Virus record (IMG/VR): IMGVR_UViG_3300023179_000012
Reading direction: 5' to 3' (one strand)
Length of the DNA stretch: 64,000 bases
Origin: a virus
A model generated the notes under the pieces. That model was not told where the DNA came from. It was given only the letters and a program-made list of their open reading frames with translations, and searched no databases. Both the position numbers and the translations under genes were made by a program. Positions within the stretch are counted from its first letter, which is position 1. Every line of letters begins with the position of its first letter. This document shows positions 33,824 through 41,250 of the stretch, one piece after another.

Positions 33824-33896
33824 TAGGAGTGGTGGGAGTCGAACCCACACTGTACGGATTTTAAGTCCGTTGTCTCTGCCATTGGACTACACTCCC
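33824..33896 (-). tRNA. tRNA-Leu(UAA), short variable loop, no encoded CCA
   Basis: Cloverleaf GGGAGTG/CACTCCT, ACGGA-CTTAAAA-TCCGT, GTGGG-TTCGACT-CCCAC, A73. Confidence 0.95.
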
Positions 33897-39662: not shown

Positions 39663-39802
39663 TTCTTTTTCTTTTTTGATGGATTTTCTAGTTTATCTAA
39701 TTTTTTTTGTAATTTATTGAAATATTTATCTTCTGCCAATTTTTTTGGGTCATGGTCTTGTTGCTTCTTAAATTTCTTTAGTACTTTTTTCCAGAACTTC
39801 AT
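39659..39802 (-). CDS. small Lys-rich protein
   Basis: 47-aa ORF, not in track (MKFWKKVLKK...SKKKKK); TGA overlaps the DUF1501 ATG. Confidence 0.5.
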   Translation of the reverse strand: MKFWKKVLKKFKKQQDHDPKKLAEDKYFNKLQKKLDKLENPSKKKKK

Positions 39803-39804
39803 AA

Positions 39805-40158
39805 TGGATGCGGCGGGAATCGAACCCGCGTCCTAGCATACTTCAAATTATATCTTCTACAAGTTTATTATGTTCATAAGTTTTATGAAAGATTAAAGAA
39901 CAAACAACATTCATCTTTCCGTACCAACTAATCTCATGCTAGAACCCGTTGGCTATTCTAGCAGCCGAAGGATTTTACATCAATCTTTTGAACGCTACCT
40001 TCATCGCTTTCTAAGATTGTTGCTGTTATTTAATTAAGCAGCAAGGGCTAACTGAGTATTGCCAGTTAAAGCATTTAATCGACTTTTAAAGTGGCCGGTC
40101 GATTAACCACTACTTGCTAATATAATCTTCTTTATGTAGTCGAAACCTTTACGCACCC
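39805..40158 (-). ncRNA. ssrA: tmRNA
   Basis: Acceptor GGGTGCG/CGCATCC with G3-U70, T-arm, PK1 GTGG/CCAC plus TTAATCGAC/GTCGATTAA, tag frame GNTQLALAA* at 40034-40063. Confidence 0.97.
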
Positions 40159-40355
40159 TTATTATTATACACAAAATCCCTGTTTTGTAAAGTCTCTAGT
40201 TTGAGATAGAGATATTCAAAAAAGACTTTATACATAATCTTTTCTTTCCTCAATAGTTTAATCTCCTCATACTGAATAAGATTAAAACCAAAAGACATAG
40301 ATAAAAGACCAATTATTGTTACATAATATGGCATATGTTTGGATCTGTTAGACAT
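40149..40355 (-). CDS. small membrane protein overlapping the tmRNA 5' end
   Basis: TM helix; last codons overlap the late promoter and tmRNA. Confidence 0.55.
   Translation of the reverse strand: MSNRSKHMPYYVTIIGLLSMSFGFNLIQYEEIKLLRKEKIMYKVFFEYLYLKLETLQNRDFVYNNKGA
40163..40172 (-). promoter_or_regulatory. putative late promoter GTGTATAATA
   Basis: Motif ends 4 nt before the tmRNA 5' G. Confidence 0.55.
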
Positions 40356-40370
40356 TATTTTCTTTCTAAG

Positions 40371-40642
40371 TAGGGCGTGTAGGAGTCGAACCTACCTTTT
40401 GAATACCTTATCTTACCACTATAACTTTCGTTACCCAATGGTTTGTGGTCTGGACTTTATCTTTACCATAACTTTCGTTTTAGGTACTGCCTGTCAAGTC
40501 TCTACACCTTACTATTTTAATAGTCTTGGCTCGGTATTAGCATTTTAAAGCCTTCACCGAATTTAAGCAGTTCTACTCTACTGGTTTCCCAGTAGGCACT
40601 CATAATTTTAAGAGTATGTGCAACTACCGGCTGCAACGCCCC
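40371..40642 (-). tRNA. intron-containing tRNA, predicted anticodon UAU (Ile)
   Basis: Exons 40610-40642 and 40371-40411; spliced loop CTT^ATAA, stem ATACT/GGTAT, canonical T-arm, atypical D-arm and variable region. Confidence 0.8.
40412..40609 (-). ncRNA. group I intron (IC3, trnL-like), ~198 nt, no ORF
   Basis: P AAATTCGGTGAA, Q AATACCGAGCC, R GTAGAGACTTGA, S AAGATAAAGTCC; P1 CUU/GAG; terminal G; GAAA-capped helices. Confidence 0.92.
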
Positions 40643-40673: not shown

Positions 40674-40702
40674 ATTATACCTTATCGACCAATCCCTGTC
40701 AA
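40674..40702 (-). promoter_or_regulatory. sigma70-like promoter with TCGATA box
   Basis: TTGACA-GGGATTGGTCGATAAGG-TATAAT, upstream of the tRNA. Confidence 0.75.
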
Positions 40703-41250
40703 CCCTTGAGAAATTTTTCGTAATAGTGGCGATAAATACTCATAATGATACCACTAGTTGTTCCAACATTTAAAGACCTAACACTTCCATAAGTAGGAAT
40801 AGTCAAAACACAAGCACAAGCCATAAGAATTTTCTCTGACAATCCAGAATTTTCTTCTCCAAAAATAAAAATTGGCTCATCAATATTAGAAAAATCAAAA
40901 CTAAAAGGATCAAATGTCATGTCTTTGTATTCTGGAATATTATTTTCAATAGCAATTAATGTTCGGCCACTTAATGAATGTGATCTAATAAAATCTTCTT
41001 CAGTTTTATGATAATACATAGGAGTATAGTGGTGAGTTCCTACGCTTCCTCTTTTATCCCATTTCTTTTTACCAACATAATGAACGCTACGAAATCCAAA
41101 AAAATTAGCATTACGAACCATAGTGCTAAGATTAAAATCTCCACCAATATTTACCATAGCAACACTAGCAGGAATACTTTTGTCCTGACAATAGTTCGCA
41201 ATATTCTCGACTGCTAAATCTTTAAGACTGTCTATTACGTTCATCTTCAA
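40699..41250 (-). CDS. SpoU/TrmH-family RNA 2'-O-methyltransferase
   Basis: NLSTMVRNA, IFGEENSGL, IPTYGSVRSLNV. Confidence 0.92.
   Translation of the reverse strand: MKMNVIDSLKDLAVENIANYCQDKSIPASVAMVNIGGDFNLSTMVRNANFFGFRSVHYVGKKKWDKRGSVGTHHYTPMYYHKTEEDFIRSHSLSGRTLIAIENNIPEYKDMTFDPFSFDFSNIDEPIFIFGEENSGLSEKILMACACVLTIPTYGSVRSLNVGTTSGIIMSIYRHYYEKFLKG

Follow-up and report, generated by a model that had tools for sequence, protein, structure and literature searches.

The Split tRNA Gene and Its Neighbours

The window (the whole stretch of viral DNA that was analysed, 64,000 nucleotides of IMG/VR record IMGVR_UViG_3300023179_000012) has a G+C content of 32.6%. Its minus strand holds a tRNA gene at 40642..40371, which is split by a group I intron at 40609..40412. 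The 5′ exon (40610..40642, minus strand, 33 nt) consists of an acceptor strand, the D-arm, the 5′ strand of the anticodon stem, and the loop bases C32, U33, and U34, and ends with ACUCUU. The intron (40412..40609, minus strand, 198 nt) is IC3-like, can be modelled from P1 to P10, and has no open reading frame (ORF); it starts with AAAAUUAUGAGUG (in a longer reading, AAAAUUAUGAGUGCC) and ends with GUGGUAAG, where the terminal omega G is position 40412. The 3′ exon (40371..40411, minus strand, 41 nt) begins with AUAAGG (longer reading, AUAAGGUAU) and supplies A35, U36, A37, and A38, the 3′ strand of the anticodon stem, a 7-nt variable region, the T-arm, the second acceptor strand, and A73. CCA is not encoded by the split gene. 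The minus strand of the window (1-64000) also carries 80 of the 80 non-overlapping ORFs of at least 100 amino acids.

A sigma-70-type promoter of the form TTGACA-17 nt-TATAAT is predicted by pattern match at 40674..40702 (minus strand), ~30 nt upstream of the tRNA 5′ end; 12 of its 12 hexamer bases fit. Directly upstream of the tRNA gene there is a gene for a SpoU-family RNA 2′-O-methyltransferase (40699..41250, minus strand; Pfam PF00588, 83.5 bits against a cut-off of 29.7). Directly downstream, at a distance of 212 nt, lies a phage tmRNA gene with the tag GNTQLALAA (39802..40158, minus strand; 132 bits), and a promoter-like site for the tmRNA is found at 40191..40164 (11/12 match). Many related viral contigs show the same succession of SpoU gene, tRNA-Ile(UAU), and tmRNA. 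The SpoU-type enzyme (of the TrmH, TrmL, or RlmB subfamily) may modify tRNA-Ile(UAU) or the tmRNA. The space between the tRNA and the tmRNA also contains a conserved ORF of 68 amino acids (40149-40355, minus strand), which looks membrane-spanning by eye.

Detection of the Intron and the tRNA

Are such genes recognised by standard tools? When the region was searched alone, the Rfam model Intron_gpI (RF00028) scored 58.4 bits at 40621..40432 (minus strand, E 2.8e-14), against a curated cut-off of 50 bits; on two other carriers the model scored 58.7 and 56.2 bits. This search with a group I model had been proposed in the initial annotation, which recognised the group I sequence elements, the 3-bp P1 (CUU/GAG), and the terminal G. 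The identity of the intron is established by this score, by direct reading of the sequence, and by the alignment of 30 introns described below.

Scans of the whole window with Rfam, one at the gathering threshold and one at E <= 0.001, missed the intron both times, probably on account of speed filters. ARAGORN run on the window reported the tRNA-Leu(UAA) and the tmRNA only, leaving the split gene unseen, and with its intron options it made no tRNA call on the unspliced region. Given that both ARAGORN and the whole-window Rfam scans are blind here, annotation pipelines would overlook the tRNA and the intron alike. Phage tRNA inventories and analyses of codon supply thus undercount AUA decoders and other U34 tRNAs, because standard tRNA finders skip such genes.

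The Joined tRNA and Its Uninterrupted Alleles

Where exactly is the gene interrupted? The region was spliced in silico across a grid of junctions and the products were judged by ARAGORN. Removal of exactly 40609..40412 gives a product that ARAGORN calls tRNA-Ile(tat), with a length of 75 nt, the loop CUUAUAA, and the anticodon UAU; the joined exons themselves amount to 74 nt (33 + 41). The insertion point therefore lies between anticodon positions 34 and 35, after U34. Running a tRNA finder on the spliced sequence was the other check proposed beforehand, and its outcome agrees with the loop and anticodon read from the sequence at first.

The predicted joined anticodon arm was then used as a query against IMG/VR. 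It is present in 75 contigs, and 71 of the matches are uninterrupted tRNA-Ile(tat) genes; tRNA-Ile(UAU) itself is thus common in phage contigs. In 17 contigs the uninterrupted gene is identical to the joined exons of the window at 74 of 74 positions. Four intron-less loci (L179, L185, L201, and L163) are syntenic with the window and are without exactly the 198 nt; in L179, L185, and L201 the exons are 100% identical to those of the window. The syntenic contigs have the SpoU-type gene upstream and the tmRNA downstream, and their alignments with the window break at 40411 and 40609. The boundary is ambiguous by one base (an A on either side), which leaves the product unchanged. At the DNA level, the 198 nt is a clean presence/absence polymorphism at the predicted boundaries. 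The insert between two tRNA halves, as first described, has its exact ends fixed by the 74/74 intron-less alleles and the syntenic loci, and splicing at 34/35 to the loop CUUAUAA agrees, at the level of DNA, with both the ARAGORN call and these alleles; the exact boundaries and the sequence of the joined product are established in this way.

Probable Decoding of AUA

What is the likely function of the spliced product? The joined loop (C32 U33 U34 A35 U36 A37 A38) has seven nucleotides, with U33 and a purine at 37, and is the same in the 71 uninterrupted genes. Other parts of the molecule are less regular. As noted from the outset, the D-arm and the variable region are odd: a single base links the acceptor to the D-stem, the D-loop is short, two bases precede the anticodon stem, and the variable region is 7 nt long. 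The first acceptor pair is G1.U72. The Rfam tRNA model skips the D-arm and gives the identical intron-less allele 28.4 bits (cut-off 29), while ARAGORN calls the same allele tRNA-Ile(tat). Among homologues, compensatory changes are seen in all four stems (D, T, acceptor, and anticodon).

Isoleucine codons in the window are AUA in 32% of cases, or 26 per 1000 codons. The tRNA inventory was taken from a complete relative, the 186.8-kb phage genome G001 with terminal repeats, which is 83-93% identical to the window and serves as a stand-in for its genome. In G001 the tRNA-Ile(UAU) is accompanied by 11 further tRNAs, the majority of which have U34 and suit codons that end in A (Lys UUU, Glu UUC, Gln UUG, Arg UCU, Thr UGU, Gly UCC, and Leu UAA). 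No second tRNA-Ile and no TilS-type domain were found in G001. A set of U34 tRNAs together with AUA-rich genes fits a phage that supplies decoders for codons that are rare in its host. A-ending codons are strongly preferred in the window in general (AAA 74%, GAA 77%, CAA 77%, and AGA 56%).

It has been established in Mycoplasma mobile that the anticodon UAU reads AUA without lysidine (PMC3575796), and a suppressor of a tilS deletion in Bacillus subtilis uses tRNA-Ile(UAU) as its AUA decoder (PMC3919564). As in these two cases, UAU would here take the place of a lysidine-modified CAU for the reading of AUA; in contrast to them, where the tRNA gene is uninterrupted and cellular, the gene in the window is phage-borne and split by a ribozyme, and its D-arm is atypical. 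It is a reasonable inference that the spliced tRNA would be a TilS-independent decoder of AUA. U34, whether unmodified or xm5-modified, could also read AUG.

Alternatively, the intron may splice and yet give a product that is not an isoleucine-charged AUA decoder. Such a tRNA might receive a different amino acid, or serve as decoy or bait for host anticodon nucleases or some other tRNA-directed factor. The non-canonical D-arm and variable region, and an Rfam tRNA score just under the cut-off, would be compatible with this; so would the fact that the gene always adjoins the tmRNA and the SpoU-type methyltransferase gene. However, the loop from C32 to A38 and A73 match the bacterial tRNA-Ile pattern, as in E. 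coli tRNA-Ile1, at every base except 34. The anticodon arm is shared by more canonical members of the family, which encode CCA; AUA occurs often in the phage genes, and the remaining phage tRNAs suit further codons ending in A. A product other than an isoleucine-charged AUA decoder is, on this evidence, quite unlikely. The isoleucine identity of the spliced tRNA is a prediction from two features, the anticodon loop and A73.

Structure and Covariation of the Ribozyme

The intron carries an internal guide sequence, 5′-UUAU-GAG-3′ (40599..40605, minus strand). GAG (40601..40599) pairs with the exon CUU to form P1, and UUAU (40605..40602) pairs with AUAA of the 3′ exon to form P10. P1 is a helix of 3 bp between the exon bases CUU and intron bases G9, A10, and G11, with a U.G pair at the splice site, and P10 is a helix of 4 bp. 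The catalytic core (40452..40502, minus strand) consists of the 5′ strand of P7 (40502..40496), the 3′ strand of P3 (40492..40486), P8 (40485..40465), J8/7, and the 3′ strand of P7 (40457..40452). The helices P1, P2, P3, P4, P5, P6, P6a, P7, P8, P9, P9b, and P10 were assigned by hand. The minimum-energy fold recovers P2, P3, P4, P5, P6a, and P9b, the centroid adds part of P8, and the z-score is -3.06. P5 is a short hairpin, and in a comparison by eye, IC3 seed rows share core strings with the intron of the window. The subgroup assignment, made from these core strings, is IC3-like.

Covariation was examined in an alignment of 30 distinct introns, with the window intron included. Under the P1-P10 model, 93.3% of the cells pair, against 31-43% when the partners are slid; 34 pairs have changed on both sides, and the observed values were reached by 0 of 500 shuffles. 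P3 and P8 show compensatory changes among the 30 introns. All six pairs of P7 are invariant in 30/30 introns, so that this helix is neutral as covariation evidence. Thus, covariation supports the core helices other than P7, and the P3/P7 pseudoknot is part of the model. A direct repeat, AACGAAAGUUAU, in P8 and P9b was considered as a feature of this copy and rejected, being common to many family members.

The U.G pair of P1 is invariant in the 30 related introns (30/30), and the guide changes with the host. The first P10 pair is UA in 18 introns, GU in 7, GC in 3, and CG in 2, and is unpaired in 0. Next to the splice site, two P10 pairs change in step with the anticodon from one tRNA class to another (Leu, Lys, Arg, Thr, Ala, and Ile). 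The guides are UUAU-GAG for Ile, UUU-GAG for Leu, UAG-GAG for Lys and Arg, UAC-GAG for Thr, and AUGC-GAG for Ala. These substitutions, read from the alignment, argue strongly that the ribozyme family works and that its guide is fitted to the tRNA in which each member sits, and the family would represent a natural set of retargeted ribozymes.

A Family of Introns in Phage tRNA Genes

How widespread is this type of intron? IMG/VR was scanned with a 16-nt core motif, which gave more than 120 loci, and host genes were assigned by brute-force splicing with ARAGORN and a P1/P10 score. Of 124 stretches, 73 could be placed in tRNA genes, mostly at 34/35 after CUU. The majority of the 73 interrupt tRNA-Leu(UAA), and the others lie in Lys(UUU), Arg(UCU), Thr(UGU), Ala(UGC), Ser(UGA), and Ile(UAU), in a sample that is biased to close relatives through retrieval of all members by one exact core motif. 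The case is thus less singular than the initial annotation implied: the family occurs in many U34 phage tRNAs, with at least six classes besides Ile (Leu, Lys, Arg, Thr, and Ala, and less surely Ser).

Within the GenBank phage collection, the closest match interrupts a tRNA-Leu(UAA) gene in an unannotated 735-kb record of an uncultured huge phage (L001, LR756501.1); identity is 81% across the 169 matched nt of the core. The tRNA gene, which has a long variable arm, lies at ~1430-1720 of this locus, and its intron of 205 nt, at 34/35, belongs to the same family as that of the window. An Rfam scan of the 3.2-kb locus did not report this evident intron. The other matches in the phage database (HTVC120P, Deep1-GF2-KM23-C739, pYD6-A, and probably Atu_ph07) were dropped, since they lie between or inside protein genes rather than in tRNAs. 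A narrow and exact search of genome contigs with the Ile-type guide pattern gave no bacterial carrier; its sole match, a Dehalococcoidia metagenome-assembled genome, is without the intron core and was rejected as a chance match.

Further tRNA-Ile(UAU) genes also carry the intron. The second carrier, L125, lies in the G001 genome; two further lineages, L075 (204 nt, 78.6% identical) and L202/L203 (205 nt), have introns that keep the guide UUAU-GAG and sit in a different, more canonical subfamily of tRNA-Ile(UAU). In an unrooted FastTree analysis of 32 introns, L202/L203 not among them, which was read by its topology, the Ile introns of the window, L125, and L075 cluster beside a Lys(UUU) intron within the diversity of Leu(UAA) introns. 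The initial annotation had proposed that a trnL-type ribozyme moved into a different tRNA that shares its CUU target. The trnL-type kinship is supported by the closest match in a tRNA-Leu(UAA) and by the nesting in the tree among introns of phage Leu(UAA) and Lys(UUU) genes; more than one donor tRNA and either direction of transfer would fit the tree.

The window itself has a tRNA-Leu(UAA) gene 6.5 kb from the tRNA-Ile gene (33896..33824, minus strand). As first noted, this gene is uninterrupted and has the same CUU^A site, and its loop, CUUAAAA, is the classic target of the intron family. The resident P10 guide UUAU would mismatch this tRNA at position +2.

Comparison between carriers bears on whether the intron of the window still works. 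Its insertion may instead have inactivated this copy, so that a dead intron now lies in a decaying tRNA pseudogene. In favour of this it can be said that P1 has just 3 bp, that splicing of the gene in the window is predicted from sequence, and that ARAGORN and the whole-window Rfam scans are blind to it. Against this, 59 of the 59 modelled pairs are standard in the window intron, and its P7 core is among the positions invariant in all 30 introns, itself included. The intron is 98.5% identical to that of L125 despite flanks at 83-91%, and the exons of the two differ solely by compensatory pairs (four differences forming two pairs, in the acceptor and T stems). Taken together, these identities suggest that exons and intron are both under selection. 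In addition, the perfect promoter match is retained, and the tRNA is the sole tRNA-Ile in the relative G001, a genome type rich in AUA codons. Decay of this copy is therefore highly unlikely.

Intron-less alleles with flanks at 90-92% identity have exactly the exons of the window. Presence of the intron therefore does not track the surrounding sequence, which suggests that it was either gained laterally in recent times or lost precisely. The existence of both states in near-identical contexts makes gain and loss of introns in phages directly testable.

Proposed Splicing Pathway and Possible Mobility

The rules of group I splicing lead to the same junction as the alleles, with the U34.G9 pair, P1 between CUU and GAG, the terminal G, and P10 between UUAU and AUAA; the guide 5′-UUAUGAG-3′ pairs continuously with the joined 5′-CUUAUAA-3′. 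The initial annotation had named one outcome that would overturn it, the junction CU^GAUAA with the anticodon GAU, for which nothing speaks except the G that precedes AUAA; its probability is negligible, because the intron would have to end in A and leave its terminal G in the exon, P1 and P10 together form an unbroken run of seven pairs with CUU^AUAA, and intron-less alleles in 71 contigs read CTTATAA at exactly this place, so that together with the syntenic breaks it is excluded at the DNA level.

The best explanation, to which we assign a probability of roughly 85%, is that a large AT-rich phage has here a functional tRNA gene into which a self-splicing group I intron without an ORF, of the kind known from anticodon loops of bacterial tRNAs, is inserted between U34 and A35. 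The gene would be transcribed from its own predicted promoter. The intron would fold and pair GAG with the exon CUU, with U.G at the 5′ splice site, and UUAU with AUAA of the 3′ exon. Free guanosine would then attack after U34, and the freed exon end would attack after the terminal G, giving a 74-nt tRNA with the loop CUUAUAA and the anticodon UAU. Because P1 is only 3 bp, splicing probably needs the anticodon stem, as in Anabaena, where such a dependence is indicated by the title of Zaug 1993 (cited in PMC3984707). CCA would be added by a host enzyme, the tRNA would most likely be charged by the host IleRS, and AUA would be read without lysidine. Splicing activity, isoleucine charging, AUA decoding, and movement of the intron are what we infer from these sequences.

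Is the intron a burden, a benefit, or neither? Under the explanation preferred above, it is most probably selfish and near-neutral, an element that spread between those phage tRNA genes which share C32 U33 U34 and whose P10 guide was adjusted for each anticodon. No homing endonuclease ORF is found inside the intron, whose 198 nt are all ribozyme. In three related lineages, an HNH-like ORF of 164-188 amino acids is convergent with tRNA-Ile(UAU) and stops one base short of the 3′ end of that gene (L125:8407-8973, plus strand; L202:1580-2074, minus strand, and likewise L203; L116:255-767, minus strand). Its match to Pfam HNH_3 is weak, but the motif can be readily made out by eye, and the product resembles a free-standing homing nuclease that would target the spacer between tRNA and tmRNA. 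The window lacks this ORF. In L125 and L202/L203 it lies beside an intron-bearing tRNA and in L116 beside an intron-less tRNA-Ile(UAU), and on the latter ground a strict linkage between HNH gene and intron was rejected. Collaborative homing of a free-standing nuclease and an ORF-less intron is, on the basis of this arrangement, a lead and not a finding.

It is also conceivable, though in our estimate rather unlikely, that the intron is not neutral cargo and that the family is actively moving among U34 phage tRNAs, its P10 guide being retuned for every anticodon. The intron might gate or time translation through ribozyme folding of the only AUA decoder; a decoder for ~26 per 1000 codons would then depend on the folding of a ribozyme. 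Alternatively, it might shield the tRNA gene from an HNH endonuclease of competing phages that is directed at tRNA genes, an idea prompted by the HNH-like gene one base from tRNA-Ile(UAU) in the three lineages. If this were the case, intron and nuclease would spread together by collaborative homing.

Comparison with Known tRNA Introns

The closest known type is the Leu.3Ug intron of tRNA-Leu(UAA). The two share insertion at 34/35 after C32 U33 U34, P1 between CUU and GAG with U-1.G, and the terminal G. Both are small and ORF-less, and by eye against the seed alignment they share the core strings AAAUUCGG, CCGAGCCAAG, GGUGUAGAGACU, and AGUCCAG as well as the ending GUGGUAAG. They differ in the host tRNA, which is Ile(UAU) here, and in the P10 guide (UUAU versus UU(U)); the carrier is a phage here, as opposed to a bacterium or plastid. 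The study by Williams (bioRxiv 10.1101/2020.01.27.920355) raised the bacterial tRNA intron classes from 4 to 21, and its seed alignment has 3Ug introns in Leu, Arg, Lys, Thr, and Ser; the 22 tRNA settings of that alignment hold no entry for an Ile(UAU) class.

The Azoarcus intron, listed as the seed row Aol6.Ile2.5Ug, is a small IC3 intron in the tRNA for AUA; the IC3-like intron of the window is also small, lies in a predicted AUA decoder, and has a P1 of 3 bp and a very similar P3-P8 core. However, the Azoarcus intron is inserted after position 36 of a CAU anticodon, which still needs lysidine from TilS, whereas the intron described here lies at 34/35 of UAU, for which no lysidine would be needed. 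The P9 region also differs.

Have introns been seen in phage tRNA genes before? According to a 2014 review, phages have many tRNA genes, yet every phage group I intron known at that time lay in a protein gene (PMC3984707). Introns in the tRNA genes of Lak megaphages were described in 2019 by Devoto, whose report states that none had been reported earlier in phage tRNAs (PMC6784885). The resemblance lies in the phage tRNA setting and in the checking of ends against insert-free alleles; the Lak introns are called 'enigmatic' there, in passages that name no class, whereas the intron of the window is a clear group I ribozyme. A literature search for group I introns in phage tRNA genes found no description of one. 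The novelty lies in the choice of Ile(UAU) as host tRNA and in the occurrence in a phage; in bacterial tRNA genes, introns of subgroup IC3 at the 3Ug site are well known, and with a textbook mechanism the surprise is limited.

The 205-nt Azoarcus intron is often cited among the smallest natural group I introns. Some members of the phage family may be shorter: the tRNA-Lys(UUU) introns of L120, L028, L023, L063, and L053 are predicted, with ends taken from splice-site scoring only, to be 181-185 nt long with a shortened P8.
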